Assembly: GCA_010093605.1 (NCBI GenBank)
Contig: MU004184.1
Span: forward strand, 382,801 to 446,800
DNA from: Lophium mytilinum
Taxonomy: Eukaryota
Reading direction: 5' to 3'
Length of the DNA stretch: 64,000 bases
Position numbers and translations under genes: made by a program. Positions 10,778-48,470 of this stretch are shown here, in pieces. The notes under the pieces are model-generated. The model saw only the letters and a list, made by a program, of their open reading frames with translations, made no database searches and had not been told where the DNA came from. The first letter of the stretch is position 1; every line of letters begins with the position of its first letter.

Positions 10778-10943
10778 AGGCTGATCTGGTCAATCTACGG
10801 CAGGATTATCCAAACCAAAAGCCTTGGGTGGCGTACACGTGGGAGTTGGGCTTGTACTCTTAGTACCGCGAAGTATCCTGCCAAGAACGGGCAGAAGGGG
10901 TGCCTATCAGGCGAAAGATCTTCTGAAGTTGATCGTCGTTGGT
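10778..10943 (-). pseudogene. PHO85: Fragment of Pho85-type cyclin-dependent kinase C-lobe
   Basis: Minus translation [39 protein letters not shown]..(frameshift)ILP*IDQISL matches the remembered fungal Pho85 [51 protein letters not shown]. It has stops and a frameshift; the rest of the kinase is absent. Confidence 0.85.
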
Positions 10944-11449
10944 CAACCTAGCAATGCTCTCCGTGTTTTTCCTTTTGCTCTAGTAGTCTGGTGGATTAAA
11001 GACTCTTTGTTTATTCGCCAAGTCTGACAACAGACTGTTATCGACACCTAAGACCGTTCCAGCTTTCTGTACTCTCATGATCAGGAGCAGAGGATCGCGG
11101 GTAATCTTCGTAAGACCATTCGGAAGCTGGAGGAGGGGGCGGCGGAGGGAGGGTGGATCCAGCTCGAGGAGGAGGTCAGCCGGTAGAAGCTCCTCCATAT
11201 CGCCGACGTCGACATCGTCCTCGTTGTCCTCGCTCCGAGTCTTGACTCCGGTCTTCCAACTAAAACTTCTGCTTTCTATGAGCGTTAATTTATGCAACGG
11301 AGACCACTTAAGGCACATACCTCGTGTCGCTTCTGTAAAGCCTCGTGATACTCACGATTCACATGCCGCAAGTAGCCTCCTCGTCTCATTCTCAGTTCGA
11401 GGTCTTCCTTCTTTACCCAAACAAAACGGAGAGACAGGAAGATCTCGAC

Positions 11450-11575
11450 CGTTTCTGAGCCAACTGCAATGGGAGCTTCCACAATGCATCCGTTTAGGAA
11501 CCTTCCGTTCATGAGTTTGACGCGCACATTGGCCGCTTCCACAGTCGAGAAACAAACGATGGCGATCCCATCACT
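11450..11575 (-). pseudogene. CUS2: Fragment of the UHM/RRM2 of U2-snRNP-associated factor Cus2/Tat-SF1
   Basis: DGIAIVCFSTVEAANVRVKLMNGRFLNGCIVEAPIAVGSE fits the Cus2/HTATSF1 pattern G(V/I)xxVxF...AAxACVxxMxGRxFxGRxVEAxIAxGxE. Confidence 0.65.
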
Positions 11576-11639
11576 CGAAGCAAAAATGAGCATGTTTCCA
11601 CGAAACTAGACTGCATTGACGAGAACCTATCCGATGAGA

Positions 11640-11975
11640 CCCTTGACATTCGTGCTGGCCACTGAAACCTAAAGCAAAAAGGAAAGGAAGGATGATCCGT
11701 CATGCTGGGCCCGTGACACTCCATATGCACAGGCTGATCGACAGAGATATTTCCGTCAACTCGCAATCATGGATCAGTATCACAAAGATCAGAAGCAGGC
11801 TATGCTTGCTCGAGTTGCTGAAAAGAACCCAGACGCCGCCACGACCTAGAACGCTAAACAGAGCCTGAAGGGGTGTGGGCGGACGGGGCTGGTTCTGGCT
11901 GGCCAAGGTCTCCCTAACACCATGTGCCACGAGAACAGCCCGGTCGAACCAGAGGTTGCCGGCCTGGAGTTGAGC
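11640..11975 (+). repeat. Diverged duplicated segment, copy 1 (paralog at about 30640-30985), unknown coding relic
   Basis: cactgaaacctaaagcaaaaagg...atgcttgctcg...agacgccgccacgac...ccggcctggagtt is collinear with cactaaaatctaaaccaaaagg...atgcttgctcg...agacgccgccacgac...ccggcttggagtt. Confidence 0.85.
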
Positions 11976-11994
11976 TTAAGTTAGGTTTCTATAT

Positions 11995-13156
11995 TCAGCT
12001 ATGGTTGTGATTTGGCGGAGTGACGGAGGGGAGGAACCGGGGGCCCGCGGCAGGGACGGGGTACTCTTGGTTGAGGGCCAACTTGTTCAGTATCGCGATC
12101 CCAAGCATTCGTTGTTGCATCTCAGAGCAGGAGATGACACATTTGCCGTCCAAATAGTTATTTAGAACACCATTGCGACTGACCAACGTGGTCCAGTGAG
12201 GCTTCTTCGGACTGTCCATGATGCCAGTATCGGTCGAGATGCGGTCGAGGCCGGCGCCGACACCAACGGCATGCTCGCTGTAGCGTCTGTAGGCAGAGAG
12301 GTCCTCCATCTGATCTTCCATTTCCTCAATGACAGAGTCGAACTCAGTCAAGCATAGGCCTCGAGTGGGGCCAGCGGTCTTGCGGCGATTGTAGGACGGC
12401 GGCGAGCCTGTGGCTGAAGCGCGATACCGTGCACGCGCGTTTTCTCTGCAGCTTGTCGCAAGCGCGCGATCGAGGACGCCTCGGCAGTCTTGTCTGGTTT
12501 TCCACAATATGAAGCTGGCAGCTTGAGGCCACCCTTTGAGTCGTTCGAATTGCTGCTGACGTCGTCGTCGTCTTCCAAGAGCTGGGGAAGGCCACTGGTA
12601 TCGAGAGTGGCCTCACCGAAAAGGATACTCTAGAAATCACGCCTAGGTCAACGCTCATGATGTCTCCAAGCGAGACAACTGGGTTCTTCGCCCATGTAGC
12701 TTCGATGCTCAGGTCCTCAGCCATATCAGCCATGGCAGTGTATACGGTCTTAGCTTCGCGTATGCCATCCGGAGTCGCGTCCTCGTCCGTCTCGGATGTC
12801 ATCTCGACAAGGAAGCCGGCGAAGCATTCTGTGGGGAAATAGTGGAAGGCAGGTGTAGAGAACGTAGTCTTGACCTCGACATTCTATCCACAGCCACCGT
12901 TCTGCATGGTGGCGAAGTTGGTCTCGGGCAGGAAGAAGCCCTGGGATGGGGGTAGAAACGTGACAAAAGTGCTTTGGTGAGCTCGATCGCAGGTGAAAGC
13001 CGAGGGTCGGGCGGAGTCGATGTTCACAGACGTATCAACTCCCAAGATGTCCCACTCACTCCAGGGTTGCTGCCCCACACGCTACAGTCTAGCATTATGA
13101 CGGCGGCGCCGAGATCCAGGAACGTGGTCATCGCCGAGATATCCCACACAATACAT
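11995..13156 (-). pseudogene. Disrupted hypothetical gene
   Basis: One reading frame from ATG 13156 continues through in-frame TAG stops at 13082 and 12884 into ORF 12344-12802, then shifts frame into ORFs 12348-12578 and 11995-12507. Confidence 0.65.
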
Positions 13157-20256: not shown

Positions 20257-20372
20257 CTCTGGTTTGGCTCGGTAGACGGGGAGAAGAAGGACAAGCGGTC
20301 GATATTTTAGCGGGAGCTTGGATGTAACGCACGTGCGTAGGTTGCGGGCTATATTGATGATACTATCAAGAG

Positions 20373-22330: not shown

Positions 22331-22560
22331 TAAGAAGAAGCAACACATCTGCGAACAGGACCTCGCCGGCTGTGAGATATTAGCTTAAGCAAAAGATGAA
22401 CAGCGGTAAGGTCACTCACCCTGTCGCATGAAATCCTTCAGGTGATGCTATTTGACATCGTAGGAGAGGTTGCCGATGTAGACGCGGCGATCCTGTTATA
22501 ATGACTCCCGTAGATACTGCATTATTTACTCCTTGGCCTGCACGCGCGCCTCTGAACCGG
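22331..22560 (-). pseudogene. GBP2: Fragment of Gbp2/Hrb1 SR-like RNA-binding protein (RRM1) with intron
   Basis: EARVQAKE*IMQYLRESL*QDRRVYIGNLSYDVK*HHLKDFMRQ, then intron 22370-22419 (GTGAGT..GCTAAT..CAG), then AGEVLFADVLLL. The stops are RIP-type (CAA>TAA, TGG>TAG). Confidence 0.9.
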
Positions 22561-23269
22561 GGGTCAGGGCTCCTCAAGACGCGCTATAGGACCTGGTGAA
22601 CGAGGCGGCACCGCCCTGTGCGGCTGCGCCGGGGGATCAAAAGCTTCGGTCCGTACAACAAGTCTTAAATCCATCCTAGAATCCAATCGCAAAGCCAAGG
22701 GTACCCAAGACATGAGAAAGTAAGCTTGGAGAGTGTCGGCGTCGAAGAAGGCTAGGTTATTCCCGTCTCTCTAAACATGCAGGTTGCGTTCAAAGAGCAT
22801 TAGGCGCGACTAAATAATAGCTTACCGGTGCCCCAACCATGTTGTCTTCTCCATTTTTGCGACCTCGGAATTTAGGGACAGCCGCATTGTGTTCATGACC
22901 ACCTGAAGTTTCTTGTTTTCTCTCGCCTCCGGAGGATCCCAGGTCGTGTCTATTCATTCCAGGCTCTAATTAAGTTATTAGTGACTCATCAACCGCGTGC
23001 CTGTGTACCAGCTATGCTGTCTTGTCCATTTTGGCGGCATCAGATTTTCGGAATAGTCGCCGCATCCAGTCCATGACTACTTGGAAGTTCTCATTCTCTC
23101 TTGCCTCTAGAGGAATCCAGGCCCGTCTACCGAGAGTAACTCTCATCACCAAGCATGGGCATTGTTGAAGTTGGGCGGGCAACGCGTCCCTTCGTCGTGA
23201 TCGAGCATTGCGGAAGAGTCGGCACCGAGACTTTTCGGACCGTCTTCGCGACTGCTCACGGTCGCAAGA

Positions 23270-25910: not shown

Positions 25911-26980
25911 CCGGACGTCGGTTTCAACCCGTACACAGCGTGTTTTCGGACTTCCGCAATGGCGTCAATCTCCTTGTACAGCTTCTCTTTGTTTTCCGGG
26001 TTCATCTTCGCCGTGGCTAGTGATCCGCCATCCCATCCATGATGTGAAGCGCGTTCCATATCTTCTTTTTAAGTGCAGCCCTATCTACACTCTCGCTTTT
26101 GCCGAATTCGAAGTCCTTCGCGCATGACAAGGGGTGGCCCTCGAACATTGCAGTTGTGAAGCGTGTTCGCCATTCAGCGATCCTGATATGCCTACTCGCC
26201 GTTGCCGCAGGGCATCACCACTAGCATCGACGTATCCCTCCGGAACATCTGTCTCTACTCGTACACAGCGTTCTTTCGGACCTCGGCAATGGCGTTGACC
26301 TCCTTGTACAGCTTCTCCTTATTCTCCGGGTTCATCACCGCCGTAACTAGTAATCGTTAGTAAGGAGCCCATAAAGATGATAGTTTATAGGACCGTACCT
26401 TCGAAAACTCAGCGAACATTCTGTAGGCGATGTGGCAAAGCGAAAGCGCGTGGAACTGGCGTCGTCACCGGGTGAGGAAGTTCAGATGGTCAAGGTGAGA
26501 GCGAGAGGCGTCCGGAAGAAAGGTGAGACGAGCGGATTGGCTTGCACCAGTCCACCCGAACCTCCTGCTGCTGGGGCTTCTCTCGATCTGTCCTGCTGGG
26601 GCTTCTTCTCTTTCTGTAGCTTGGGCTCCTTCGTCCACCGTGTACCCAAGTCCAGCAACCAGCCGCAAATCTGTAACGAATGCCGCAGCCGGGGCGTTCA
26701 TTGGCTTGGTAAGCACGTCTGAACGGTCCTGAGCCGGCTGAGACTCAGGCTGCTGGTCCTGTGCCGGTTGGGACTTAGGTTGCTGGTCCTGTGCCGGTTG
26801 GGACTTAGGCTGCGGAGTGGCCTTCGAGGAACTCCGGCTCTCGGCAAGGGCAACAGCTTCGTCCAGAGCATGCCTCGGCGTGGCTGGCAAGAGGAACGCA
26901 AGGGCGAGACGCTGTGGTAGTAGAATTGGAGGCAGAGGTGCATTCGATCGAATTGTCGGACTGGTGGCTCCGTGATGCAC
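25911..26980 (-). pseudogene. Disrupted gene with a duplicated coding module and a QPKSQPAQDQ repeat
   Basis: ORF 26465-26980, a canonical intron 26347-26398 (GTACGG..TACTAAC..TAG), and two copies of MNPENKEKLYKE(I/V)(D/N)AIAEVRK at 25911-26025 and 26241-26355. Confidence 0.65.
26725..26813. repeat. 30-bp tandem repeat x3 encoding QP(K/E)SQPAQDQ
   Basis: ggtcctg(a/t)gccgg(c/t)tg(a/g)gact(c/t)agg(c/t)tgct units. Confidence 0.92.
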
Positions 26981-30639: not shown

Positions 30640-30985
30640 AACCTACGACATTTCAAGGGGCACTAAAATCTAAACCAAAAGGAAAAGAAAGCGTGATCCA
30701 GTATGCTGTGCCCATAACACCCCAGTTGTCCAGGCTAGTGGACAGAATTATTTTTCAACTGGCCTGCTTGGAAACCATTAAGCAGCCTCATAAAGAACCA
30801 GAAGCAGACCATGTCACAAATGCTTGCTCGCATCACTGAGAAAAATTTAGACGCCGCCACGACTAGGAGCGCCAAACAGCTCCTAATGGTGAGTGCTGGA
30901 CCGTTGCTGGTCTTGGAAGGCACTCATAACGCCATCAAGCACAGGACTGTAGGTTCAAGCCAGGCGTACCCGGCTTGGAGTTTGG
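30640..30985 (+). repeat. Diverged duplicated segment, copy 2 (paralog of 11640-11975)
   Basis: Collinear nucleotide similarity. ORF 30811 (MLARITEKNLDAATT) matches MLARVAEKNPDAATT at about 11800. Confidence 0.85.
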
Positions 30986-33892
30986 CAGCATTCATGTTCC
31001 TCAATCCAGCCAAGGTTGTCACATCCCTTCGTAAGTCACCTGCTAGCGTCGGTTCGTGCACGTAAGCCGTAAGCCTGATACGACGTAGCACCGTATAAGG
31101 GGCCTAGATTTCTCGTTTATTAGCGTTTACCACTAAATCTAATAATAGCTACTTATAAAGTTATACTTAATATATTAAGAATCTTTAAAAAATTATATAT
31201 AGCTTATTTTTTATAGTATTAAGGCTAGAGTAGGCTTAAAATAGGTAGGCTACTATAGCCTTTCTATTTCTAACAGCCTTACTATCTAAACTTTATATAG
31301 CTAGCGCTTATAATAGGGCTCTATATACTTTCTATAGAGAGATAAAAGGTACGCCTTATATCTAAATATAGTTCTTAAGGTCTTTCTTTATAAGCTGGGT
31401 TTTATTATAGTCTTAATCTAGTAGTAATAGTAATAGAAAGGCTATAATTATTATAGATAATAAAACCTTTTAATTACGTGCCTGCGGCTATATAGATATA
31501 TAGTAGAAAGAACTATATACTATATAATAAGCTACCTAATAGCTACTTACCTATAGCCTATATAATTTAGGCGGAATTAACCTAGTTTATATAGCTTTAA
31601 GAATATTATTTAGAGGCCTATTATACGCCCGGTATTCTTCTATATCTTTTAATAGCTAATTTAAATAAGATTCTATACTAATTATATATAGAATCTTTTA
31701 TAGATTATTAGTATAGTATTTCTAAATATTTAGAATATAATTTTAGAGAGTATATATATATTAATAATAGCTATATTAAGTATCTAGAAGAATAGTAGTA
31801 TTTAGATATATATATATATAATCTAGGTATTATAATAGCTACGCAGCTAATTATAAATATTAATACTCTCTATCTAGTTATTATAGTTAATTAAAAGCTA
31901 AGAAAGATATAGAAATTTAATAGAATTATTACTCTATATTTTAGTAATAAGCTTCTTTAATTACGCTATATAACTATATAGGCGGCGGTAAAGAACCTTA
32001 TTATAGTCTAATAGCTAAGTACTATAAGTAGTAGTTAGAAATCTTATAAGATTTTTATCTTACTATATAATTAAGAGAATATTCTTTTCTAAGCCTAGAG
32101 CTCTTATAACTACTCTAGAGAATAGATTAAAAGAAAGCTATAACTTTACTTTATCTATAGCTTTATACATAGCTAGATAATATATAGAGTTAGACCTTAT
32201 AGTACTATAGATAGTAATTCTAATAGACCTTAGAGCACTAAAGAGATTAATATTAGTAAAGTAGTTATTATAGTAGAGGATATAGTACTATAAAAGAGTA
32301 GATAGTAATATATAAAGCTTAAATATAGCCTTACTAGTAGTATTAAAAGTATAGTTAAGAGCTTAAATATATTAAAAAAGGCTAAATACTCTATTAAATC
32401 TAGAGGTAAACTAGAAGGCATAGTAGTAGCTATATTAGTAGAAAGAAAAGATCTTATAGCCCTTAGAAATAGATTTTCTAGGTATCTTAATAGTATAAGA
32501 GCTTTAGCTAGTAAAGCGCACTATTATCTTATTAATTAAGACTATAGATCTAGGTATAATATAGTATTAAAAGTTATTTTAGAGTATTATTATAAAGAAT
32601 TAAAGCTTTTTAAATAGATATATATATCTTAGCTATTTCTTAGCTATACTAGCAGCGCTAGATATAGATTAATTCTATAAGTTTAATTAATTAGAATATA
32701 AGCTTAAATTAAGCTTAGCTAGTTAAAATAATAGAAAGCTCGCCTAAGCACTACTACCTAGTAAGGTAATATTATTAGCCTTATACCTTAAAAACTTACT
32801 AGATAAATATAGAAATATCTTTTAATCTACTTCTACCTATAATAGCTTATATACCTAGTAATTATATATAATAGTTATTTCTTACTTAAATTCTATATAT
32901 TCTCTATTTATAGCAGCCGGAAGACCCTAATATAGATAATAATTCTAACCTAAATTATTAACTTAGTAATACTAACCTTTTTCTAGAGCCTCTTCTTCTT
33001 TTCTATCTATTAGCCGGCTAAATTAATAGAACTATTATATAGCTATATTACTATATATATATTTATAGCCTTTATATAATACTTAAAAAGCTCTAGAAAG
33101 AAAAGTAGCTTAAAAATCTACTATAGTAAGTTCTATCTAGAACTAGAACCTCTAGAAAGATACTTATTAACTTTTTTATCTCTTTTTCTAGATATATAAG
33201 TATTATAAGTATTCTTATTCTCTTACTATTCTTCTAGGGCCTTAGGTAGCCTAAATTACTTTAAATAGTATAGTAAATAGGCCTTAGAGTATATAACTTT
33301 CTTAGTCTTAATAGTAGCTATAAGAAGGCTTATAGATATAGCGCTAGTAATAATTTTTAATAGAGTTTTATTAACTTAAGGTATAGAATTCTAGCTTATA
33401 GATATAGTAGGTAGATTCTTAATAAGTATAGACTTACGCGGCTTAGTAGTATTCTTCTTCTCTTTATTAGGCCTATATAGAAAGGTAAACTTATTAGTTT
33501 AATATATCTTAGCTATAAGCTTCTTCTTTTCTTTCTTCTCTTTCTTATTAGCTACTAAGGGCCTTAGCGGCTAGCCTCTAGTATAGAAATCCAGCGCGGA
33601 AATATAATTCTTAGAAATAATAGGTAGCTACTAGGTAATAGAAATAGGTATATATTATATAGCTAGAGTAGCTATATAGCTCTATAAGAAGCTACTAGAT
33701 ATAGTAGAGAAAGGGCCCTTTTTTAGTATATTTTTTAGTACTTTTAGTGCCTTTTTTAGGGCCTTTTTAGTTACTTTTTAAGCTTATAGTATAATAAGAG
33801 AGAGAATTATAGCTAATAAGTATAATAGATAAAGAACTAGTATATAAAACTAGCTATATAGAGTTTTCTAATAATATATAGCTATTTATAAG

Positions 33893-34094
33893 TATAATAG
33901 ATCTAGCTCTATATATATTATATGCCCTTAGCTATATTATATAAGCCTATGCGCTAGCATAGTTTTATACCTCTAGCCTATATTTAGCCTACGCTATATA
34001 GAACCTCTATCTCTATATAACTTTATCTTTATAAATATACTCTATTTCTTATTTAATACTATACTCTATGCCTTGCCTCTTATAGTCTATAATA
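33893..34094 (+). repeat. Gypsy 5' LTR
   Basis: Matches 41554-41755; the differences seen are C/T or G/A transitions. Confidence 0.95.
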
Positions 34095-37000
34095 CTATAA
34101 AGTTACTCTACCTAGCTACTATCTACCGGGTCCTTAAATTATAATCTACTGCTAGCGAACTATAATACCCTATAATTACCCCGCGCGGCTATTAATACTA
34201 TAGCTAATAACTCTAACTTTAACTCTCTTAGTATAACTAGTATATAGAAGCTTTAAGACCTCCTTTTATAGCGCACTATTCTTATACCCTTAGACTTCTA
34301 GGCCTTAACTTAGAACTTCTAGAATACTAACACTACTAAGAAATTCTAGATAATTACTAGAAATTTATAGCGCGCGCGTAGCTATAATAATAATACCTAA
34401 GATAATATTACTAAAGGCGACGCTATTCTTAAAGATAATAAGCTTTAGAAATACCCTAATTAACCTAACCCTAGTAGCTATATCTACTACCCTAAGATGC
34501 CCGGCGCCTTTAAGACTTTTATTCTTAAAGTAAATAAGCTTATTAATTATTCTACTATTAATAAGTAAAATACTAATAAAGCTTCTATTATATATAAAGT
34601 TCTAGACGCTAAAGCCTTTATAGACTTTATTACTAAAAATAAGGTAATAGCCTTTAAATTAACCCGTTTATATAAAGCTAAAATCTATTAACTATATAAC
34701 TATTTTAAGCGTAATAAGGCCTCTATAGAGGCTTAGGCTAAGCTTAATAAGTAAGCTTATAATATAATTAAGTAATAAGATAACCGCCTCCGGGCTATAA
34801 AAGATAATATTAAGTAGCTAGAAAAAACTATTACTAATATAAAATTTAAATACTAGTCTAACCTTTCCAACCTCTATAATAACTGTAATAATACTATCTA
34901 AGATAAAAATAACACTATCTACGCTAGAAATGCTAAAGATAAAATTATATATAAATACGTTACTAATATAGTAGCGTTTACCGCCTAGATAGATACTATT
35001 AATATAATAGTAGTAAAGTATATTACTAAGCTTAAGGCCTATAGAAAAGCTTTAGCTAAGTATATTACTAAGCTTAAAGCCTATATTAAGAATATTAAGA
35101 AAGCTCTTACTACTACTAAAGTCTATATTAACGGCCTAGAGAATACTACTATCTATAGCCCTACCGCCCGCACTAATAGCTCTCCCCCTAAGATTACTAT
35201 ATAGCTTACCGCTACTATAAGCTATTAATATAAGCTTATAGCCTATATTATAGCTAAAGGTAATACTAAGCTAGACTATTACCCGCCTATTCTACCTAGC
35301 TATAACTACTTACGCAGCCGCTAGCAACGTAAACCCTTACTACCCCACCGCCCTAATAAGCCCCTCTATAGTTAATAGAACTATATATACTCTACTAGGG
35401 GCGGTAGTAGACCCCCCTTTAATTCTAGTAATAGTAATAATAATAAGAACTTTCGTAACTATAATCTAATTTATATTTCTTAACTATATATACTACCTTA
35501 TATAAAACTAGATAGTACTCTATTACCTCTATATAATATTAACTATAGAAGCTGCGCTAATTAGAATAAAAATAAGACTATACTATACCCCCCTAAGTAT
35601 AATAGTAATAAAGCTAAGTATATTACCTAGTATTACTAGGTTCTTAGTAAGTTTATCTATAGTAGTTACCTATACTAATATAATAAAGGCTTCTGCCTCT
35701 ACTTTCTTAGTATATATCTTACTAGTATACCTCTTAGTAACTATATAGCGCGGATAATAGGCTATTAGCCTTTTTATACTCTTAATAAAGCTATTAAGCG
35801 CCTTAATATTAAGAATCTACTATATAACTCTAAAGCTACTACTTTCTAGTAACTTAACTAACTAATATAGAGTAATAATAACCTTAATATATTCTATATA
35901 AAGTACTAAGTACTTATAGTATAACTACTAAATTAAGAATACTATTAGAATATTACCGCGCTTAAGATAAAAATCCACCTAGGTATTACTAAGCCTGCGG
36001 GCGTTCTAGAAAAATATTATAAGAAGGGATATAAAGTTATTAATATATACCGCAACTAGCTTCTTAATTAGGCTATAGTAGACTATACCTAGCTACGCTA
36101 ATAATATAGTAACTAGCCTAAATAGTATAGCTAATAGCCTAATAACCTCTAGACTAGTAATAATAGCTACTATAGAGGCTACCGCGGTAATAAGCCCTAG
36201 AACCCTTCTAACTAGACCCTAATAGGTTAGTTCTAGGCCACTTAAAACTAGATTACTTAGAACTAAGGCTACTAAAATAACTATAGCTAAGAATAAACCT
36301 AGACTATAATAAATGCGCCTAGCTAGAATTACTAGATATCTATACTATAGATATATAAAGTTATAAACTTCCCTATTAATATTTCTACTAACTAGTAGCG
36401 CCTAGCCCTAGGCTATCTTATAGATAACTAAAAGCATTAACTTATAAGTAAGAATTACTACTTCTACTACTAACTTATTAGTTATATATCTACTAACTAG
36501 TAGTACTCTATAGAGCGCTCTATACTTACCCTATATAGTATTAGTATATATTCTAATAGTATTATAACTCTAGCCCTATTTATATATACTCTATTTATAT
36601 ACGCGCCCCTATTTATATATACTCTATCTATATATATAGCTTCTATAATATTTACTCTAGCTTCTACTAAAGTAGATATTAATACTTCTATTTTATCTAG
36701 AGGCGCGGGAGAACTATTTATAGAATACAGCTAATCTTAATACTAGAGCTACTTAGGAAATACTTAGTTCTAGATTATAGTCGCGATCTAGGGCGTATTA
36801 TTACTTAAGCAGTCTAATACTATAAAAATAAAGAATCTACATAGTTAAGAAGGTTAGTTATTTTAGCTACCTCTCTTAGTAATAATATTTAAGCGGGTTA
36901 AACTAATAAAAAGACTTTTTATAGCTTTCTAGTACTAGTAAAGATCTAGCGTTTCTATAAAGAATAACTACTAGATATAATTAAAGAATACCTTTATAGC

Positions 37001-40000
37001 GATACTAGAGTAACTAATAAATTTATAGATACTACTTATGCGTACTAAATAAACTTTTCTATCCGCCCCTTACCTAAATTATAAATACTTAAATTAGCTA
37101 ATAGCTCTACTATTACTAAAAAGATTACCTATAAAGCTTTTATTTCTATTACTATTTAGAACTACTAGAGCCGTAAATAGGCCTATATTACTAACCTTAG
37201 TAACTATAATATTATCTTAGGCCTCTATTAGTTCTAGTGCTATAACCTAGCTATTAATTAGGTTACTAGCAAGATTAACTTTATAAAAGAGAAATATAAT
37301 AGAATTTCCTATCTATATTACTATTACTATATAGATAATACTAATACCGCTATTATATATATAAAGGGCTTAGCTCTACCTAATTTTATATATAATTATA
37401 ATATAATACTAAAACCCTTTAATTTTATAGACTCTATATAATAAATAGGTATTATAGTCTACCTTACTATATGCCGCATGGCCGCTATTAAAGAAGACTA
37501 GCTTAATAACTTACCTTAATATATTATAGCCGACCTTACTAATACCTGCAAGGATTTTTTAATCTATTTAAATTATCTTTAGATTATAGCTATATAGATA
37601 AGTAATATACCCGTCTACCTCTATAAACTAGCTATGCGCGATATTAAAAAGTTTATAGAAGATAAGTAATACTATACTAAGAAGAAAATATTTACTTAAC
37701 TTCCTTCTAGTCTTTATAAATACATCTATATCTTTAACTAAGTTAATATAGATAGTTTACTACTATACTAACTAGAAATAGATTATAAGATTAACTAGGT
37801 TAACAGCGTTAACCTTACTAAGTTACCTAAAGCCCGCCTATACCCTATATTAGCTAATAAACTTTACATTATTAAGAAATAGCTAGATAATAATCTAGCT
37901 AAGGGCTATATTAGATAATTATAATTATAAGTCTCTTTACCTATTCTTCTTATCTATAAGCTAGGGGGCGGTATCTAGTTCTATATTAACTATAGAGCTA
38001 TTAACGCCCTTACTATTAAAATACGCTACCTAATTCCGCTTATCTAGAAAACCCTCTATTAACTAGGTAAAGCTAAATAGTTTACTAAGCTAGATATTAT
38101 TGCCGCCTTTAATAAAGTCTATATAGTCCTAGGCTATAAATATAAAATAGCTTTTATAATATATTATAGTAAATATAAATTACTTATTATACCTTTTAGC
38201 ATTATAGGGGGCCCTAGAACTTTCTAGTTCTTTATTAACTGCACGCTATATAATTTCCTTAATAAATTCTATATAGTATATCTAGATAATATTCTTATTT
38301 ATATAGAAGGTTTAAAGAAAGACTATAAGGCCTATATAGCTACTATTCTTAAATATTTAGAGGCTATAGGCCTATATATTAACTTATTTAAATACGCGTT
38401 TAACTAAAAAGAAGTTACCTACTTAGGCCTAATAATTTCTACTAACAGGATCTATATAGACCTAGAGAAAGTTATAGCTATTTTTAAATAGAATACTCTA
38501 ATCTATATTAAGAATATTTAAGCCTTTATTAGGCTATCTAATTTCTACTAGCGCTTTATCTATAGCTTTTTATATACTATTAAACCTCTTACTAATATAA
38601 TAAAGCTCTAAGAAGAATAGAAGAAACCCTATTTCTTATAGATAGAGGCCTATAAAAAAGGCTTCCGCGCGCTTAAAAAAGTATTTATAGAGGTACCCGT
38701 CCTTATATACTTCTAGTATAGTAAAAAGGTTTTTCTTAAAACTAACGCTTCTAATTATATAATAGCCGGCGTTATATTCTAAATTAGGCCTAATAGCCTT
38801 CTATACCTAGTTACCTTCTTTTCTTCTAAGATATTACTAGCTAAGTATAACTATAAGATCTATAATAAAGAACTTCTTACTATAGTTAAGGCCTTTAAAA
38901 AATAGAGACCCGAGCTTATAAGTGCTAATTCTAAAGACCTAACTAATATCCTTATAGATTACTATAATCTTAAGTAGTTTATAACTACTAAGAAGCTTAA
39001 TTAATAATAGGCCTATTAGGCTAAATTTCTTACTAGGTTTAACTTTAAGATTATATACCGCCCTAGCGTACTAGAAGGTAAACCTAATAGCCTTACGCGC
39101 CGTTTATAAGACCTATCTTATAGGCCTAATAATCTATAAAATTAATTTTAATATTAAACTATACTTAAATTCTATAATCTTAGACTAGAAGTTATACTAA
39201 ATAGTAAATTACTCTTACTTAATAACGCTAAGCTAAGTAAGCCCGGCGCCTATAGGCTATTTAACGCACTTTACCCGTATACTAAGCTACTTAAGCCTCT
39301 TCTAATAACCTTACTATAATTCTCTCTTAAAATATATTCTCTCTTTCTTTTATCTCTATAACTTACCCCTGCTATACTACGCAGCTATAACTAAAACCGT
39401 GCTAGTAATAACAGTAATAGTAATAGAAGCGCTAATAAGAACTTTATAGCGCTACCCGGTAATACTAATAAGATTTTTATAGCTCTATTAGCTAATAAGA
39501 ACTTTATAGCTGCTAATAAAGTTATTATAGTATAGCTAGATTAAGGTAATAGTAATATTAATAATAATATTAACTATAATAATAATAACTTATAGTACTT
39601 TATTAATAAGGCCTATATATGCCCCTCTTATTCTAAACCTCTATATAATTCTATACTATATAAACTAACTAACTTTATTTAAAGTAGCGCTTACTCTATT
39701 CTAAAAGCCCTCTGTAACTTTATTAGTAATCTTAATATTAATAGCTTTAAAGTATAGAATAACTAACTATACTATTATAATTATCTATATATACTAGCCT
39801 ATAACTAGCTCTATACTAAGCTACTTAGCCTCTCTTATAATACTTCTATTACTAGCTATTCTAGTAAATATAGCTTCTATAAGCTACTTTAGTACTACTA
39901 CTTCTAGCCTAACTTCTATAAAGATATTAAGCGTTATATAGGTGCCTACTATAGCTATTACTAAGTAAAGGCTTTCTAAGATAAATAGTAAGAACTACTC

Positions 40001-41553
40001 TATAGCCTTAATATACTAGATAAGTAATAGACTAAAATTACTATAGATTTTATTATAGACCTCCCTTCTTATATATAAAATAGGTAAATATATATACTTA
40101 TTCTTATTAGGGTTAACTAATTATCTAAGAAATACTACTATATTTCTATAATAGGCAACACTATTAAAGATATTACTAACGCCTTTATTTATAAAGTCTT
40201 CTAACTATACAGCTTATCTAAAGTTATTATTAGTAACCGCGGCGCGTAATTTATATCTACTATTTAGCGCCGCCTATATAAATAACTTAGCGTTAAGCCT
40301 AAATTCTCTACCGCTTTCTATTCTAAAACTAATAGCTAGACTAAGAACGCTAACGCTGTTATAAAAGCCTATCTATAATAGTTTATTTTATACTACTAAA
40401 ATAACTAGGTTAATTATCTTTCCCTTAGTAAATTTACTATTAATAACTATAAATTAGCCTTAATAGGCTTTACCCCCTTTTTTACTACTTATAGTTTCTA
40501 CCCGCAATTAGGTATTAAACCCTATATACTAGTAATAGAGCGTGCTATAGTATATAATAAGTAGCTACTAGCTAACTAATATACTAATTAGATAAAAGAG
40601 ATTCTTATAGAATGCCGCTAAGCTATTATCTAGGCTATAGCTGCCTAAGCTTACTTTATAAATTAATATTATTAACTACTACCTTATCTTAAGATAGATA
40701 ACTTAGTCTAGTTTAACGCGCGTAATATTAAAACCTAATACCCTAATTATTTACTTAACTATAAGAATCTTAGCCTATTCTATATTACTAAAGTTATTAA
40801 TTAGAATTATACCTTTTAGCTTAATTTTATAGAAATATTACTTAAAGAATATTATATCTATAATATCTTTTATTCTTACCTACTCTACCTTTTTAAGCCC
40901 CGGCCTATACTAGAATAGAACCTAGCTCCGCCTCTACTAGTATAAGTTATTAACCCGCATAAAATAACTAATAATAAGCAAGATTATATTAATATATAGC
41001 TAATTAACTTTATTATAGATAGCCGTTAGCTATAACGCGGCCGCTATAGTTATAAGCTATAATACTATACCTAGTATAAGGGCTATACTAAGCTATAGAT
41101 ATAGTAGAACTAGACTAACTTTAGTAAATATAGTTTTAATAAGCTTATTAGTAAGTTCTATTACTAATACTCTAATACTAATAGCCCTTATCTAAACTTT
41201 AGGCCTAACCCTAACTAGTAGTAAGTCCTTAATAAGCGCGTACTTATAATCTATAATGCGCGCGCTTATTAACTCTAATTATATACCTTGCGCAGTAATA
41301 TTATAATATTATTTATAACTTAACTAAGACCTAGATTCTCTACTATATCTAGCTAGCTAAGCTATCTTAATAGGAACGCCTACCTTTATAATACTATAAG
41401 TACGCCCCTTTCTTATATAATTTCTATTTAATTACTTATAACTATATTTTCTTAGTATTTTATTTTTTCTAGTCTATAGCCTTACTATATAGCCTTTTCT
41501 TTTTATATAGCCTTTTCTTTCTATAGCCTTTTTTTTCTATTTAGGGGGGGTAG

Positions 41554-41755
41554 TATAATAAATCTAGCTCTATATATATTATATGCCCTTAGCTACATTA
41601 TATAAGCCTATGCGCTAGCGCAGTTTTATACCTCTAGCCTATATTTAGTCTACGCCGTGTAGAATCTCTATCTTTATGCAACTTTATCTTTATAAATACA
41701 CCCTATTTCTTATTTAATACTATACTCCGTGCCTTACCTCTTATAGTCTATAATA
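41554..41755 (+). repeat. Gypsy 3' LTR
   Basis: Matches 33893-34094; preceded by the PPT and followed by TSD ATAAG. Confidence 0.95.
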
Positions 41756-44242
41756 ATAAGCCCTAAGGCTATATACTATAATTCTAGATATTTTATATAA
41801 TATATAGCTTAATATATAGCTTAATAGCTTACTTAATAGCTTTAAAAATAGAATATATTAATAATTTATTATTATAGTATATATAATTATATATTAGGCA
41901 TTAGCACTTTAAAGGTCTTAGTTTAGTAGGGGGGCCCTTACAAGCGCTAACTCCGGCTATGCGCTAATGCAAGACTAGACTGGGTGCTTTAAAATCGCAC
42001 GACTTTTTTAACTCCCAAAGGGATAGCTAACTAACGACGGGAAATGACACGGGAGCACGGCGGTGAGCCGGGATACTCTTGGTGGAGGTCCAATAGGGTT
42101 ATCATCATCATCTTCGGCATCGTTGTCTTTTAGGTGTGAGGTTCGCTGGGCTCGTGGCCATCGTTGTCGTTATTGTTTTGTTAATGGTCGATGGGTGCAT
42201 CCTTGTCGTCCCCGGCATTTTGCGGGGGACGGCAGATAGACCACCCTTGCAGTGCGCAGCGCCATAAAGAAGCTGAGTCGTACCCGGAGCATGCCCAGCT
42301 CTCACCAGTTATATATCCCATGGTGTTTCGAATGTGCCGCGAGTGACATACCCACCGCAAACATCACGGTGCTGCTTCGACCACAGAGTTTCAGAGTACT
42401 ATGGTGGTACCACACTGTAAATCTCCACATTCACAGCTAGATCTAAATGTTCTCAGCTTCGTGGTTACCATAATAACCTACGCAAGAAAACGCTTCGTAG
42501 TCGCTCCGTCCAGCTGCTAGGTACTGTCGGCGCCTGTAATGACTCCATCGCTATATGGGATGATGTATCTACTCCTCTTTTACTATCGCTCCTTCACGAT
42601 GGACGACTAGAAATGCTGCTATGTTCGATTGCAGACGTGAGACGTATCAGGGTTGATAAAATTATCGAGCTCAAGTTTTGGAGATCCGGTGGATCTTCCG
42701 TCTCCAACCACGCAGTGCCAGCAACGAAGCCCGCATGCTGCTGACACCTGAAATGGTCCCGGAATCGCGGGAGAAACTTTGGCAAGGTAGGACCCTATAC
42801 CCTGTCCTAAATCATTTCGTTCCCCTTGACCTTCTCTTGTCTACTGCCACTTCACAAGATTTTCCTAACTCGAAGAAAGGACTTCGGAACTCCCTACGAC
42901 GGTAGTCCTCGGGTCTGGAATTATGTTTATGTGTTGGAGTAGGAGTGCCACTACGACGCGGCCAGTTGGAGTGACGGTGAAGATAACGCAACTGGTACGA
43001 CCAGATCATCGCTTATGATAGATGGGAATTTGGTATTTTTGGTATTGCGTGGAAGAGGAAGGAAGGGCGAACTATGCTGGATCTGTTGGGAAATTAGCTA
43101 AAATGTGTTTGGCAACCTGTAAGCTCACCCAGAGATTTCTCCAAATGGTTCCACAACCGACCTCAAGTTCGCACAGGCTAAATAGCATGTTCATGTCCTC
43201 GATAGCCCTCTCGCCGTCTTGCTCGCGGCAATCGATCCACACCCGCTCATATGAAGTAGGTAGGGAAGCCGGCGTTTTGAGCTGGGCGTTCCCTGTGTCA
43301 TGAGTGAGAGCCCACGTAGCTGCGTACTGAGGAGGTTTCGAACCCCCAACGAGCGGCTCTGAAACTGCTGAAGGAGATTTGGTCGAAATAATCTCTAGAT
43401 GTAACGCGCTGGGGCGGTTGCTAGATTCGTTGAGCCAAGAGCTCTCTCTGGGCGATGGTCAGTAAACCCCGATGAGTGCTCATGGTACGAGGAGACGTCT
43501 GTCGGCCCCGGAAAGGGATTGTGAGGAATATTGTGATGCTAAGAGGGTCCGAAAAGAGTGATGGTATGGGGATTAGGCGACAGGGAAACATAAACCATCG
43601 CAGTGAACCATAACAGAGCCACCGTTCCGTCAATTCATGCGCGCGGACTGTCTTGAGATCCTGTGGTCTTGCTGTGAGATCTCATAACGATATTCTGCAT
43701 TATGATGCAGCTACGGGTGTTCAATCCCGTTCCCCATTTCCCAAATGTCGTAGCCGGCATCGTTGTAATCAGAGAGCTCAGCTTTCCGCTTACTCGCCGA
43801 TTGAATGACGTGGACCTAGTACTGCGAAAGAAATGAGACGGAGATGATGGGCAAGAGGTCGCAGGGGTTGTGGCGGGTGGCGCGAACGATGCCCCATCGG
43901 CGGCGCAGCTGCACTCGTACTTGGTGGTCTCGGAGGTCCGAATTCGGTCTTGCTGATTGCTACAGGCATATTAGTAGAGACGCAAAGATGGCGCTGAGTC
44001 GCCCGAGGCTGAACTAGGAGGTGGTAAAGCTGGATGGAGATTGTTAAGTGTTAAAACTGGTGATGATGTCGCGAAGCAGCACAGCACTGCCGGAAGTCGA
44101 TTTTGTTTGGACGTATTTAGGGAGACTTAGAGACCGAGACCTTTACAGTAGCAGTGCATCTATTGCTGCACGTTAGTTCATTATCTATGGCGAGCTTTGC
44201 GTTGTGCAAAAAGAATGGTAGTCCAAAAAGGTGACACGACTG

Positions 44243-44253
44243 GGGCTCGAACC
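44243..44253 (-). promoter_or_regulatory. Downstream (extragenic) Pol III B box of the U6 gene
   Basis: GGTTCGAGCCC on the minus strand, about +129 from the U6 5' end, 3' of the terminator as in S. cerevisiae SNR6. Confidence 0.75.
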
Positions 44254-44276
44254 TCAGCTAAGCAAAACAAAAAGCT

Positions 44277-44284
44277 AAAAAAAA
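44277..44284 (-). terminator. Pol III oligo-T terminator (T8) of U6
   Basis: A8 run on the plus strand directly after the U6 3' end. Confidence 0.85.
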
Positions 44285-44381
44285 TATTGAAGCTAACTCT
44301 TTGATAAAGCGTGTCATCCTTAGTGCAGGGGCCATGCTAATCTTCTCTGTGTTGTTTCAAATTGACCAAATGCCCGAAGGC
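44277..44381 (-). ncRNA. U6: U6 spliceosomal snRNA (intronless)
   Basis: Minus strand GCCTTCGGGCATTTGGTCAATTTGAAACAACACAGAGAAGATTAGCATGGCCCCTGCACTAAGGATGACACGCTTTATCAAAGAGTTAGCTTCAATATTTTTTTT. Shows the 5' UUCG hairpin, A box TGGTCAATTTG, ACAGAGA box, AGC triad, internal stem-loop and TTTGA/TCAAA telestem. Confidence 0.96.
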
Positions 44382-44390
44382 GGAGGGTCT

Positions 44391-44410
44391 TATTTTATAG
44401 TGAGTATATA
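44391..44410 (-). promoter_or_regulatory. TATA elements upstream of U6
   Basis: TATATA at -29 and TATAAAATA at -18 on the minus strand. Confidence 0.7.
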
Positions 44411-45267
44411 CCCTTAGAGCGGAGAGGGTCAGTGCGCGATTGTTTGCCTACCCCACCACATATTGTGGCCAAACAGCGCGCGAGATCTTCGACAGACAGT
44501 TTATTATGCACCTCCGAGTCACACTTTGCGTTGGATATTACTGTGTGCGGCGTCGTCGTCGCCAGCCGCTGCGTGGCATTTGGTCAACGGTTCTCCGCCA
44601 CTGAACCCGCTTTTGCGACAGATACGCCTAGGGCTTTTCACGCCCTGCTTTACGCATTCTTCACTCTAAAAAGAACCCTTTCTTAGCTTTGAGTGAGACC
44701 CTCATCACGATATAAACTGCTATAAAGTTGAGTGCGCGAGGAGTTCGACACGCCAGCTGAGGGCGGGCCAAAGATCCCAGGCCGTGTAGCATCACGCACC
44801 TCCACTAAAGCGCAGTAAAGTGGTCATAAGCCCGATGGTTCACGTCGGCGTGCTTGGATTTATCTTCATTGTCTTGGCCGTGATGTGCACCTTGTCATTA
44901 CTCTCTACTGATGGCGCTGTCTGCAATCAACCTATGCCTCGCACCAGTCTGTCATCCGCCAAACCAACCCTATTTGAGACTCCGCTATGCCCTCTCCATA
45001 GCCTCCAAAGCTGGGATTATCAAGAGACGCCTTCCATGCGCTCAAATCACTCCACCATATCCTCTTGTTTGCCCTCCGTGAGTGTGAGACGCCGAAACGT
45101 CTCAAGCGCTCTCGCCTCCTCCTCGCCCGACAACCCGCGTCCTGTAAGATGTCCATTAGCCTCATGCAGCACATTACCGCGAGAAGAAAGATATATGTGA
45201 GCCCATGACACCTTCACCGGCGCTATAGATAGCAAGGCAGTGCTAGCGCCGTGGTATCTCTGGTGAC

Positions 45268-45900
45268 TCAGCCATCGCCAAATGCTGCCTCGACCCTGCC
45301 TGGCCTGTAGACGTCCCGGCCTGGTCTCCGTAGTACTACTTGAGGACTTACGCGCCGATCTCGATCGTTTGCAAAACGAGAGAAACGGCCGGACCCCCTC
45401 GCGCGATAGCTTTGTTCGATCTTGGCCCGCCATCTGGGAGCGAGGCTATGGGAAGCGCGGGCTCGGTCGATGCGACGGTGCCTGTTGGTAGGACTTTGGG
45501 TATTGAACGGAGGAGGAGCAGAAGGGGACCTACTTGGAGGTTCGAACATCGGGAGGTCGTGTTGTGAGGTCGCTTGCGTCTTCACCGCATTCAGCTTGCG
45601 TTCGCGCTTCTTGGATGCCTTCCGCTCTCTCCTAATGAAGCCGCGGAAGTTGGCCTGCTGCAGAGGCGTCGCTCGCATTCGTAGCACAGCGTCGAGCAGT
45701 TTCGCGTTGTCGTAGTTGAATCGGCTCTCGTCGTACAGGCGGCGCAAGGCTTTTCCAACGTTGGGTCTACCCCCGCTTTCCGACCTCTGTGCAGCTGAGT
45801 TGACAGCCCGAAGGACAAGGGCGTCTTTGGCGGGCGTCCTTGTAGGCGTCGGGGTGACAATGGGGGTCAGTGTATTCGAATTCCGCAGTTGACGATCCAT
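45268..45900 (-). CDS. Hypothetical 210-aa protein; N-terminal half resembles the pre-PHD region of Pezizomycotina Rco1-like PHD-finger proteins
   Basis: Open ORF. LRAVNSAAQRSESGGRPNVGKALRRLYDESRFNYDNAKLLDAVLRMRATPLQQANFRGFIRRERK recalls that family; no PHD finger present. Confidence 0.5.
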   Translation of the reverse strand: MDRQLRNSNTLTPIVTPTPTRTPAKDALVLRAVNSAAQRSESGGRPNVGKALRRLYDESRFNYDNAKLLDAVLRMRATPLQQANFRGFIRRERKASKKRERKLNAVKTQATSQHDLPMFEPPSRSPSAPPPFNTQSPTNRHRRIDRARASHSLAPRWRAKIEQSYRARGSGRFSRFANDRDRRVSPQVVLRRPGRDVYRPGRVEAAFGDG

Positions 45901-47351
45901 CTATGATACATTAGTCTTTCAAGTAGAAGTAAACCCATTGAATTCGAGAAGGAAAGAACAACATGTGCAAGCCCAGATACAGCACCACCGTCGCCAGTGT
46001 GCAGAGCAGTACTGACTACGTGGTAACTCTAGGCGTTAGTAATCGCGGAAGTGCTACCCCGGCTCTGCTCAGCCAGCCTCTTTCGGGTTCAAACAAATTC
46101 CGTGAGTGCTAGAGGACTCACGCAGTGACCAGAAAAGCATCACGCACCGACACTAGTGCCAACGCCCGGGATCAACTCCCCGGTCAGGCGCGATGACTTT
46201 GTCTGATCTTGGCCTCCACCCGTCTGCGAATGAGTGAGGCTGTGAGAACCCGGACTCGATCGACGGTACGAAGCCTGAAAAGAAATTGAAGGGAAGGGAC
46301 ACGCGTCGGGGAAAGATCAAAATACGTACCGTAACTTTGAGCAGTCTCGTTGTGAGATTCGGGTTACTGCGTAGTCTGGAGGGATGTTTCGGAAAGATTG
46401 TTGTTGTGCGAAGCCCTCGTCTTGAAAGTTAGTGTAGGTCTGTGCACAGTCGTCCACCGTTTGGGCCCGCTCCTAAGCATGTGTATATGATGACTTTGAT
46501 GAATGAACTCGAAAGCCGGCGTCTCTTCCGGGTAGCGCCACGCAGCGTAGGCCAAAGAATCACGCGGATTAGGAAGAAAATGGGCTGGAGTTGGAACTAC
46601 TCTTTCTAGCGAGTTGCACCGGCATAGCGAATTTATGTGTCACGTTTTGACGCGTTATTCACGCATCTCATTCATCCAAGGCATATATGCTGTCTTAAAG
46701 TAACAAGATATTGAGAGAGAGAAGGTATTGGAATAGGTTTTAACGTTCCAACTCGGCCTCACACGGCATGGTGCTGTCTCCAATTTCCTCGCACTACTCC
46801 GCCCGAAACCAGCTTTCAAAGTTCGAGGGCCATGTCCTGTCTGAATCCCTCTAAACGGTCTCCACGCCCCGTAGTCCAGATGCCTTCCAACCCCAACTGG
46901 GCATCATGCGCATATCTAAATCAAGAAAAGTGTTAGCAGAATCGTATATCATGTTGACGAAACAAGACGCGAACAACACAGGAAGACAAATATGTACGAG
47001 GTGGGCCGCCCGAACGGACTCCTTTCTAGCAGAGCAGGCAGCTGAAGCCGCGGTACGCCCTTTCGTCGCTCATCGTGCTCTTACGTTTTCAGGGCCCTGC
47101 TCTACCCTCATTAGACAGTCAGATCCGATCTTGCTTGCCCGTTCGCTGGTCAAAAGCATTCCCAACACCCACTGAGCACGACGATTTGGTTTAATCTTGG
47201 CATGACAGCCCAGAGCGAGAGCTACGAGAGTCGGGCTCGGTGGACTGAAGTGCCAGAAAATGTTCTTCTTGTCTTGCTCGTTCTTGGGAATTTTGTGGGA
47301 ATAGCAAACATGGAAATGAAGACTCTTACCTATTTCGCGTATGCTTTCCTC

Positions 47352-47707
47352 GAATTTCTCAGAGGCGCGGCGGATGTCCTCGGAGAGAGTCGCGCTGAAC
47401 ATCATCACCTGCTTTTGTTGAGGAGTCGCACGGAATATCTTATCGCGGCGCATGTCTTTCAAGTGACGTTAGCATAGTCCATCGAAGGTTTGGGAGGGAT
47501 AGGGTGAACGCACCGATCCGATCGAGCATCTTGTCGCATTCATCGAGGACGAACCGCTGGATGTTGCCTAGTCGTAGCTTCTTCCCGCGGACGAGGGCGT
47601 TCAGGCGGCCAGGAGTGGCAACGATGATATGCGGATGTTGATTTTTGTTCGTTGATCTTTGTTTGCGAGCATATCGATGTCCTTCTGCATGGGAGTACCA
47701 CCGTAGA
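47352..47707 (-). pseudogene. SUB2: Internal fragment of DECD-box RNA helicase Sub2/UAP56 with intron
   Basis: [18 protein letters not shown], a 14-bp duplication causing a frameshift, [41 protein letters not shown], intron 47456-47513 (GTGCGT..GCTAAC..AAG), then [29 protein letters not shown]. The DECD and SAT motifs are diagnostic. Confidence 0.95.
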
Positions 47708-48329
47708 CTGCAGAAAGATTAGCAAAGATGTTTGACTGGGACCACCTACTGGCGCCATCGAGTGCGGAGCAGCGCTGACGCCAGGGTAACTATCCCGAAG
47801 TCGTCGCCGCCGTTGAAGATAAAGGCCGCTACCCCGGCTCATAACCCCGAAGGGCCTGAAGAAACACCATACTACACTTTTACCGCATTGCGGCGAGCTT
47901 TCGGACAGGGAACCACGGTGGCGACTTGTTGGATCGATCTCGGCAAGGGGCATAAGAGCTTAATGGCTATGGAAGAGCCAGGCTCGAGTGTCCGTACCTT
48001 GCCTGTGTGGGATGGGGTGTAGCGTGGAAGGTACCTAGGCGGCTGACAACGGTTGAGAGAAGGGCATGAACGTACCATTGCTTGAAGCCGTGCTTGTCGA
48101 CGCGAATCCGGATGACCAGGAGAGGCATCAATGTCGTCTTGATATGAAGTATATTGGGCAAGCTAGACTGCGCGGAAGAACGCCGGTTCTGTGTGCGCGG
48201 GTGATTTTCTGATGAATCTCTTCCAAATCCACACGCGGATTTGGCACAGGACAAGCACGGAGGAATTATTTCGATCGCATTCGACTGGCTGTCCTGCCTC
48301 GCGAAGATCTTGATATATCTCTGCGTCGG

Positions 48330-48470
48330 GCGAAGAAGGCCTGAAGGCCGGAGAAGTCGACGTTCTTGGTGAAGCGGACGTAGATCTTGTGGCGGTTCTC
48401 CTTGCCCTTCTTGACGTTGGCACGGCCCTCTTCCTGGTCGAGGTCTACATGAATGCGATGTTCCAGGCGA
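48330..48470 (-). pseudogene. Fragment of Argonaute (QDE-2-like) N domain, embedded in ORF 48266-48862
   Basis: EHRIHVDLDQEEGRANVKKGKENRHKIYVRFTKNVDFSGLQAFF matches the remembered fungal ArgoN pattern RIxVDLDxExGR...KENxHxxxxRxTKxVxFxxLQAY. No PAZ or PIWI seen. Confidence 0.7.

Follow-up and report, generated by a model that had tools for sequence, protein, structure and literature searches.

Short same-strand fragments of conserved genes beside a U6 snRNA gene in a gene-poor region of Lophium mytilinum

The DNA described here (the window) is a stretch of 64,000 nt from contig MU004184.1 of Lophium mytilinum (assembly GCA_010093605.1, positions 382,801 to 446,800 of the forward strand). It carries a real cluster, if a somewhat unusual one, of pseudogene fragments that bear introns and share one strand, situated in a gene desert beside a real U6 small nuclear RNA (snRNA) gene (Table 1). 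Two types of blocks alternate along the window, AT-rich blocks ruined by repeat-induced point mutation (RIP) and blocks of normal GC content. Together the AT-rich blocks have a GC content of 0.25-0.27, a TpA/ApT ratio of ~1.77 and a (CpA+TpG)/(ApC+GpT) ratio of 0.05-0.11, values that are the signature of RIP. The host is a RIP-active filamentous ascomycete, and the nearest named orthologues of the gene pieces belong to Dothideomycetes, the best ones being two Mytilinidiales records. The second AT-rich block holds a Gypsy-type element with long terminal repeats (LTRs) of 207 nt that are 91% identical; its RVT_1 (1.3e-14) and RT_RNaseH_2 (5.8e-17) domains lie in a plus frame that is readable only through many stops.

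The two blocks of normal composition (~10.65-31.1 kb, GC block 1, and 41.9-64 kb, GC block 2) have a GC content of 0.51-0.52 and normal RIP indices, and the borders between block types are sharp, the first lying near position 10655. The GC blocks are almost empty of genes and look single-copy. Their stop-codon density is near random expectation in all six frames, and among 406 stop-to-stop open reading frames (ORFs) of at least 55 aa (200 plus, 206 minus) a single one reached a Pfam curated cut-off (DEAD, 47443-47718, minus). Pfam gave no credible match for the 120 ORFs searched out of 359 of 35-54 aa, a scan that also missed the known CDK piece. Intron-like motifs are near chance in GC block 1 (3 plus and 4 minus for 3.1 and 2.3 expected); in GC block 2 (4 plus and 6 minus for 2.4 and 1.9 expected) the minus strand shows the only excess, a small one. 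ORFs of at least 150 aa number 20 on the minus strand (5.7 expected from Markov shuffles) and 7 on the plus strand (3.6 expected). A few open frames, including two on the plus strand (see below) and the BTB-like one, may be real genes.

Table 1. Features identified in the window (positions are counted from its first nucleotide).
Feature	Positions	Strand	Evidence
AT-rich block 1, RIP-degraded repeats	1..10655	.	GC 0.25, TpA/ApT 1.77, (CpA+TpG)/(ApC+GpT) 0.05
CDK (CDK5/Pho85-class) fragment, ~39 codons, one in-frame stop	10830..10946	minus	PDB phmmer
RRM C-terminal half	11450..11578	minus	Pfam RRM_1 E 0.13, profile 37-67 of 70
Old dispersed repeat, copy A	11657..12008	.	blastn vs copy B
GBP2-like fragment	22335..22654	minus	Protein search best 5.3e-16; P0130 alignment
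DEDDh exonuclease-like piece	26044..26202	minus	Pfam DEDDh_C 2.5e-4, 21.7 bits, below cut-off 27
Old dispersed repeat, copy B	30658..31019	.	blastn vs copy A
AT-rich block 2, RIP-degraded	31125..41905	.	RIP indices; contains Gypsy-type LTR retrotransposon
Gypsy-type LTR retrotransposon, RIP-degraded	33891-41758	+	LTR pair, RVT_1, RT_RNaseH_2
U6 snRNA gene with flanks	44243..44412 (RNA 44282-44381)	minus	Rfam RF00026
SUB2/UAP56 fragment	47330..47715	minus	Pfam DEAD 4.7e-9; P0025/P0026 alignment
ORF P0242, 129 codons	48269..48655	minus	100% match to residues 81-209 of ORF 48269-48895
Argonaute N-domain fragment, ~50 codons	48308..48475	minus	HMMER library search, ArgoN in matched proteins
2EXR-family gene fragment	48620..48721	minus	71% identity over 34 residues to P0248, E 6.7e-4
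BTB/POZ-like open frame, 252 codons, without start codon at its head	49761..50516	minus	Pfam BTB 0.072
TOP1 fragment, linker end and C-terminal-domain start	61361..61556	minus	Pfam Topo_C_assoc 5.9e-5

At least eight or nine short pieces of conserved housekeeping genes lie in the GC blocks. The SUB2 piece, which a preliminary description of this DNA had placed at 47.5 kb on the minus strand, was confirmed. It covers only positions 77-132 of the 167 of the DEAD profile, and a protein search with it returned 655 proteins at E<=0.001, the named full-length ones being SUB2/UAP56. In its core 42 of 45 residues match P0025/P0026 (three substitutions) and exact stretches adjoin; the piece as a whole spans residues ~152-246 of the full-length P0026 and is followed by a diverged tail of 14 residues. 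It retains a 58-nt intron (47513-47456) at a point where the SUB2 ORFs of other fungi read through, its frame is shifted by a short tandem duplication, and it has suffered two small deletions (3 and 6 nt). The tail is contiguous and in frame, with 8 of its 14 residues changed, mostly by non-RIP substitutions, and it ends at GTAAGA, which resembles the start of a next intron. The 45-residue stretch shows one RIP-type change and two in the reverse direction, hence no bias. An intact SUB2/UAP56 was not found: Pfam searches of ORFs and whole frames gave no Helicase_C match, and residues 1-150 and 248-434 were undetectable. Candidate further SUB2 pieces at 48.07-48.43 kb and 46.45-46.61 kb, indicated by weak tblastn matches, were rejected as the reversed query scores equally high. 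Two observations concern the ends of the piece. At its 3′ end (47372-47330, minus), ~11 mostly non-RIP substitutions fall within 42 nt beside ~95 near-identical codons, possibly a trace of error-prone synthesis or of an older layer of sequence. At the other end, an intron-like sequence (GTAGGT..CTAAT..CAG, 47749-47713, minus) finishes exactly where the SUB2 similarity starts; at this point SUB2 is uninterrupted in other fungi.

The GBP2 call at 22.4 kb (minus) was equally borne out. The search with this piece returned 305 proteins at E<=0.1, several of them named g-strand binding protein or GBP2. It corresponds to residues 47-137 of P0130 with 76% identity and five in-frame stops, has lineage-specific residues in common with P0130 and retains a canonical 50-nt intron (22419-22370, GTGAGT..CTAAT..CAG). 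Of its 21 residue changes, 11 to 13 can be accounted for by one C>T or G>A substitution and two by one in the reverse direction, a bias derived from the comparison of proteins and not of donor DNA. One C>T or G>A substitution is also enough to produce each of the five stops; for two of them a transversion would do as well. The GBP2-like piece shows RIP-type decay, and it is the only piece for which this was found.

An Argonaute piece had been reported at 48.4 kb on the minus strand, and it holds as a piece of the N domain. The ORF of this region was compared with 1.84 billion representative sequences in a full HMMER search (E<=0.001). The seven matches comprise the window's own P0242, one long protein matched in 10 stretches, and others including four of Argonaute type. 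These four align over the same 50 residues (E 5e-5 to 6e-4, 46-50% identity); ArgoN is present in all four and ArgoL1 in three. The ORF itself matches Pfam ArgoN at E 0.14. No intact Argonaute was recovered, as Pfam found neither PAZ nor Piwi anywhere in the ORFs of the window. In one open frame with this piece lies a piece of a 2EXR-family gene; P0248, to which it aligns, carries Pfam 2EXR at 3.5e-5. ORF P0242, which spans the Argonaute piece, is on record as a predicted protein (NCBI, UniRef; a cluster of 1), a record that is probably the annotation of a pseudogene mosaic. An exact look-up of nine further ATG-to-stop ORFs found none of them in the protein collection (0/9).

The TOP1 piece scored 0.011 for Topo_C_assoc in the whole-frame screen, and all 10 of its PDB matches are topoisomerase I at the junction between linker and C-terminal domain. 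It has an intron-like gap (61434-61379), a diverged tail like that of SUB2 seems to follow it, and the lysine/glutamate-rich ORF upstream (to ~62035) may be more linker. This upstream ORF contains an internal tandem duplication (61617-61769 and 61782-61927, 72% identity).

Other identifications were partly sustained or were lost. The piece at 10.8 kb that had been called PHO85 is a minus-strand CDK-family piece (58 of 58 PDB matches, the best being a Cdc2 homologue at 5.9e-6 and CDK5 at 2.2e-5; alignment to chain residues ~204-244), its Pho85 identity being a matter of class resemblance. At 11.5 kb, the proposed CUS2 reduces to a partial RRM on the minus strand (RRM at 0.81 in PDB and RRM_1 clusters at 0.90 in the Atlas), for which CUS2 is at most a putative name. 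The YRA1 assignment at 24.3 kb found no support: no Pfam match at E<=10, no relevant PDB match, and none at E<=0.1 among 5.8 billion proteins. Neither did the Rco1-like one at 45.7 kb. The DEDDh-like piece was seen at E 0.049 in the whole-frame screen. A 111-nt direct repeat of 82% identity (25915-26025 and 26245-26355) overlaps one end of this piece with its first copy, and since both copies encode the same short minus-strand peptide, a local duplication of a coding fragment is suggested. The top PDB matches of the BTB-like ORF are BTB domains at E 0.2-0.9, a weak basis for what is a putative identity.

The fragments are 100-450 bp long, internal to their donor genes and broken by stops, a frameshift and small deletions. 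For the two pieces whose flanks were tested, SUB2 and GBP2-like, similarity ends abruptly: tblastn matches beyond the ends are weak, a reversed query doing just as well, and an alignment tolerant of frameshifts and introns left three of the four flanks at or below shuffled sequences, the fourth score being reached by 16 of 60 shuffles (positive control on the core, 370 vs 35). Only ~500 bp separate the CDK piece from the RRM piece, and those of Argonaute, 2EXR and SUB2 share 1.4 kb, spacings too small for what is left of whole genes. The donors are dispersed over at least two contigs: the full SUB2 (P0026) lies on one that equals in length (2,482,353 bases) the contig of ORF P0242, and the GBP2-like P0130 on a different one. 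Because introns are retained in the GBP2-like and SUB2 pieces, copying was at the level of DNA and not by retroposition, as the preliminary description had proposed. It counted three intron-bearing fragments; introns are kept in these two and probably in a third piece, TOP1.

Every verifiable piece lies on the minus strand, as had been claimed, a rule that extends to the newly added TOP1, 2EXR, DEDDh_C and BTB-like pieces. In screens that treat both strands alike, Pfam matches at E<1e-3 numbered three among the 206 minus ORFs and none among the 200 plus ORFs. Whole-frame read-throughs of both blocks, a procedure less sensitive than the ORF scans, again gave three on the minus and none on the plus strand (12 frame pieces each). 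The Rfam screen gave a single match, U6, on the minus strand.

This U6 gene at 44.3 kb is intact, as described before: it matches RF00026 over the full model (1-105) with 82.9 bits (gathering score 44) and E 1.4e-19. The signals of yeast-type U6 genes are an upstream TATA box, a T-run terminator and a downstream B box. Here TATATA is found at about -29 and TATAAAA at about -18, the terminator is a T8 run (44284-44277), and a B-box-like GGTTCGAGCCC lies at 44253-44243, ~25 nt downstream; the TATA-like and B-box-like elements were read directly from the sequence. By that consensus these flanks are promoter-like, and U6 looks like a working RNA polymerase III gene. It does not look like a copy of an RNA, since the TATA-like and B-box-like elements sit outside the transcribed part. 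In the reading favoured below it would be an ordinary resident RNA polymerase III gene, located on the minus strand by chance.

The origin that we favour for the same-strand pieces, with a confidence a little short of even, is that they are captured fragments (transduplicates) produced by a directional process whose closest parallel in behaviour is Helitron capture. Internal parts of conserved genes would have been copied as DNA, introns included, with intact versions elsewhere in the genome, by a process that is directional or that leaves only one orientation. Several internal gene pieces, in sense orientation and from donors that were probably well expressed, would be Helitron-like behaviour. 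The copies are dead, broken by stops, a frameshift and small deletions, at least one of them having been struck by RIP, and they presumably have no function. According to the available text of a study of maize (10.1101/777037), 78.6% of Helitron captures are sense-oriented, several captures are commonly present in one element, and the genes that serve as donors have higher expression than the rest. The available parts of PMC2575219 and PMC3288121 contain no statement on fragment orientation.

A number of observations weigh against this origin. No RepHel, PIF1, transposase or reverse transcriptase domain was found in the GC blocks (406 ORFs and 24 whole-frame read-throughs); as for a Helitron RepHel protein in particular, there is no Helitron_like_N, PIF1 or helicase besides the DEAD piece of SUB2, an absence that would also be expected of a non-autonomous Helitron. 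Ends made of a hairpin and CTRR-T occur zero times on the minus strand and once on the plus strand of the two GC blocks (0.1-0.3 in shuffles), the single one being at chance level, and the ends of an old Helitron could have decayed. The whole window has no inverted repeat of at least 50 nt (14-nt seed), and hence no terminal inverted repeats of the Pack-MULE kind. Had the element been multi-copy, RIP would have struck it, but the GC blocks are un-RIPped. In the portion available of PMC4289320, fungal Helitrons are reported not to be prone to the capture of host-gene fragments. The near-identical core of SUB2 beside its diverged tail is an uneven divergence that a simple one-off capture does not predict. 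The count of nine out of nine pieces on the minus strand is partly biased, because most of them came from minus-strand leads or a minus ORF, the symmetric screens yielding just three protein matches and U6. Finally, no more than ~6% of the 42 kb is accounted for by fragments.

A different origin would be templated insertion during repair or replication, in which broken ends or stalled forks of this repeat-flanked and fragile region would copy a few hundred bases of distant, transcribed (open) genes through microhomology-guided template switching, selection afterwards purging the orientations that yield antisense RNA against essential genes. We regard this origin as rather unlikely. It needs no transposon hallmark, and none was found; sharp ends, the tandem duplication in SUB2, the 3- and 6-nt deletions and the cluster of non-RIP substitutions at the 3′ end of that piece would suit it, as would donors on at least two contigs. 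Taken alone, however, it predicts random orientation, the purging step requires one-strand transcription across the whole region, and nine events per 42 kb would be an unusual density. The uneven divergence would suit older and longer gene copies, in an old duplicated or accessory segment, whose centres were kept similar to the parent genes by ectopic gene conversion while their edges decayed; the pieces would then be islands that shrink and not recent captures. Such copies would explain the near-identical core and diverged in-frame tail of SUB2, and the similar tail that seems to follow the TOP1 piece. The old similarities of 65-72% identity within and between the GC blocks (five direct and no inverted pairs at >=35 bits) show that the blocks contain ancient sequence, and dispensable chromosomes of Zymoseptoria carry core-gene copies without synteny (PMC3111534, in the part available). 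Yet adjacent pieces are too close for whole genes and their flanks hold no residual homology, conversion needs long identical stretches that are absent from decayed copies, the GBP2-like piece, with 24% of its residues changed, escaped homogenisation, and the shared orientation is left unexplained. This second alternative is accordingly improbable in our view. An RNA-mediated route is remote. In it a reverse transcriptase would switch between nuclear RNAs, unspliced pre-mRNAs and U6, leaving same-sense chimeric inserts; chimeras of U6 with long interspersed nuclear elements (LINEs) occur in mammals, and same-sense pieces of 100-450 nt with a U6 sequence among them are what it would give. The intron loss expected of a retropseudogene or a LINE chimera was not found, the introns of the GBP2-like and SUB2 pieces being retained. 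The external elements kept by U6 and the fact that the window's only reverse transcriptase, of the RIPped Gypsy-type element, is on the opposite strand in an AT-rich block make this route unlikely; moreover, the GC blocks have no reverse transcriptase remnants, and no poly(A) tracts were noticed beside the pieces, which were not systematically scanned for them.

The remaining alternatives give the cluster a function. The preliminary description had proposed that it may be an archive, kept on one strand, of fragments from genes of mRNA export, splicing and RNA interference (RNAi), which would control RNA-surveillance genes through small RNAs or sense decoys, or would encode chimeric peptides. 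This is very unlikely. In its favour, all pieces are on one strand, those of SUB2, the GBP2-like gene and Argonaute are genuine, the SUB2 piece has stretches that hardly differ from the parent although its frame is broken, and databases list one chimeric ORF as a predicted protein; in maize, small interfering RNA (siRNA) cross-talk links captured fragments to their donor genes (10.1101/777037, available text). Its central argument, that five of seven fragments come from messenger ribonucleoprotein or RNAi biology, is not supported after the loss of YRA1 (and, outside the five, of Rco1) and the reduction of CUS2 to half an RRM. Once the failed calls are dropped and unrelated fragments are added (TOP1, 2EXR, BTB-like and DEDDh-like, beside the CDK piece), the enrichment weakens, roughly 3 to 5 of the 9 protein fragments being related to RNA. 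Stops and frameshifts argue against dominant-negative peptides and rule out most peptides, the GBP2-like piece has drifted or been RIPped, and inverted repeats or hairpins that could provide double-stranded RNA are absent. The RNA-processing theme is mostly what readers recognise from 40-90 residues of conserved genes. The remaining donors are conserved, probably well-expressed nuclear genes, as capture bias and recognition bias both predict. The null hypothesis put forward with the archive, transposon-type capture combined with recognition bias, fits the evidence better than the archive itself, whose targeted reading is without positive support; the cluster is best read as capture debris. Hardly more probable is a one-strand long-RNA locus that acts by homology (small RNAs or sense decoys) on the parents of the SUB2, GBP2-like, Argonaute, TOP1 and CDK pieces, or an undescribed directional capture of DNA in fungi that leaves no transposon termini.

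A cluster of this kind has parallels among known systems. Helitron capture in maize and bats also brings together short pieces of different host genes, often internal exons along with their introns, in one orientation and from well-expressed donors, and it proceeds stepwise according to the part available of PMC3288121. The present locus differs in having no RepHel, no 3′ hairpin-CTRR and no recognisable ends, and in forming ~20-kb blocks that look single-copy. Transduplication by Pack-MULEs and other DNA transposons likewise copies pieces of host genes as DNA into mobile or repeat-rich sequence, and is described for histone H3 in Pyrenophora tritici-repentis, a fungus of the same class (PMC3538342, PMC6710886, available parts). 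Here there are no terminal inverted repeats, and many donors are found instead of an amplified family; Pack-MULEs, moreover, show no orientation bias in the available text of 10.1101/777037. The dispensable chromosomes of Zymoseptoria tritici, another RIP-active Dothideomycete, are a comparable gene-poor and poorly annotatable compartment with copies from most core chromosomes, without synteny (PMC3111534, part available). That paper covers genes and pseudogene footprints and not same-strand fragments of 100-450 bp, and the contig studied here has a functional-looking U6 gene. The arrangement of fragments on one strand also recalls animal clusters of PIWI-interacting RNAs (piRNAs). Uni-strand clusters of this type hold one-strand fragments of the sequences that they control and yield piRNAs; the fragments are of transposons there and of genes here, and fungi are not known to have a piRNA pathway.

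Plants provide well-described cases of host-gene fragment capture; in fungi, in which RIP turns every duplicate of an essential gene into a hazard for its parent, the phenomenon is poorly described. A dense set of intron-bearing pieces of essential genes in one orientation, un-RIPped between RIP-ruined transposons and without transposon ends, is a useful test case for the origin of such fragments in fungi, for the minimum length of duplicate that draws RIP, and for the purging of orientations that produce antisense RNA. For annotators it is a warning, as a chimeric open frame has been recorded here as a predicted protein.

The blocks have additional features. The old dispersed repeat (copies A and B) is direct, with 64.7% identity over 371 nt (E 3e-34) and no conserved reading frame. 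Further direct pairs are 19180-19320 / 62588-62728 and 24426-24594 / 42114-42229, the latter being a minus-strand motif that is repetitive, acidic and coding-like. A 13-kb element with ends at 11657-12115 and 24426-24594 and a deleted copy at 30658-42229 was considered and rejected, its second similarity being the acidic motif and not a terminus. AT-rich block 1 contains an assembly gap (10 N at 9087-9096). The two plus-strand open frames at 50853-51395 (181 codons) and 52317-53246 (310 codons) are lysine/glutamate-rich, coiled-coil-like by eye and match no known family. A real lineage-specific gene may lie here, and these frames are the chief departure from the minus-strand rule. Further along GC block 2, positions 55102-55621 form a tandem array of ~98-nt units whose copies are 69-73% alike.

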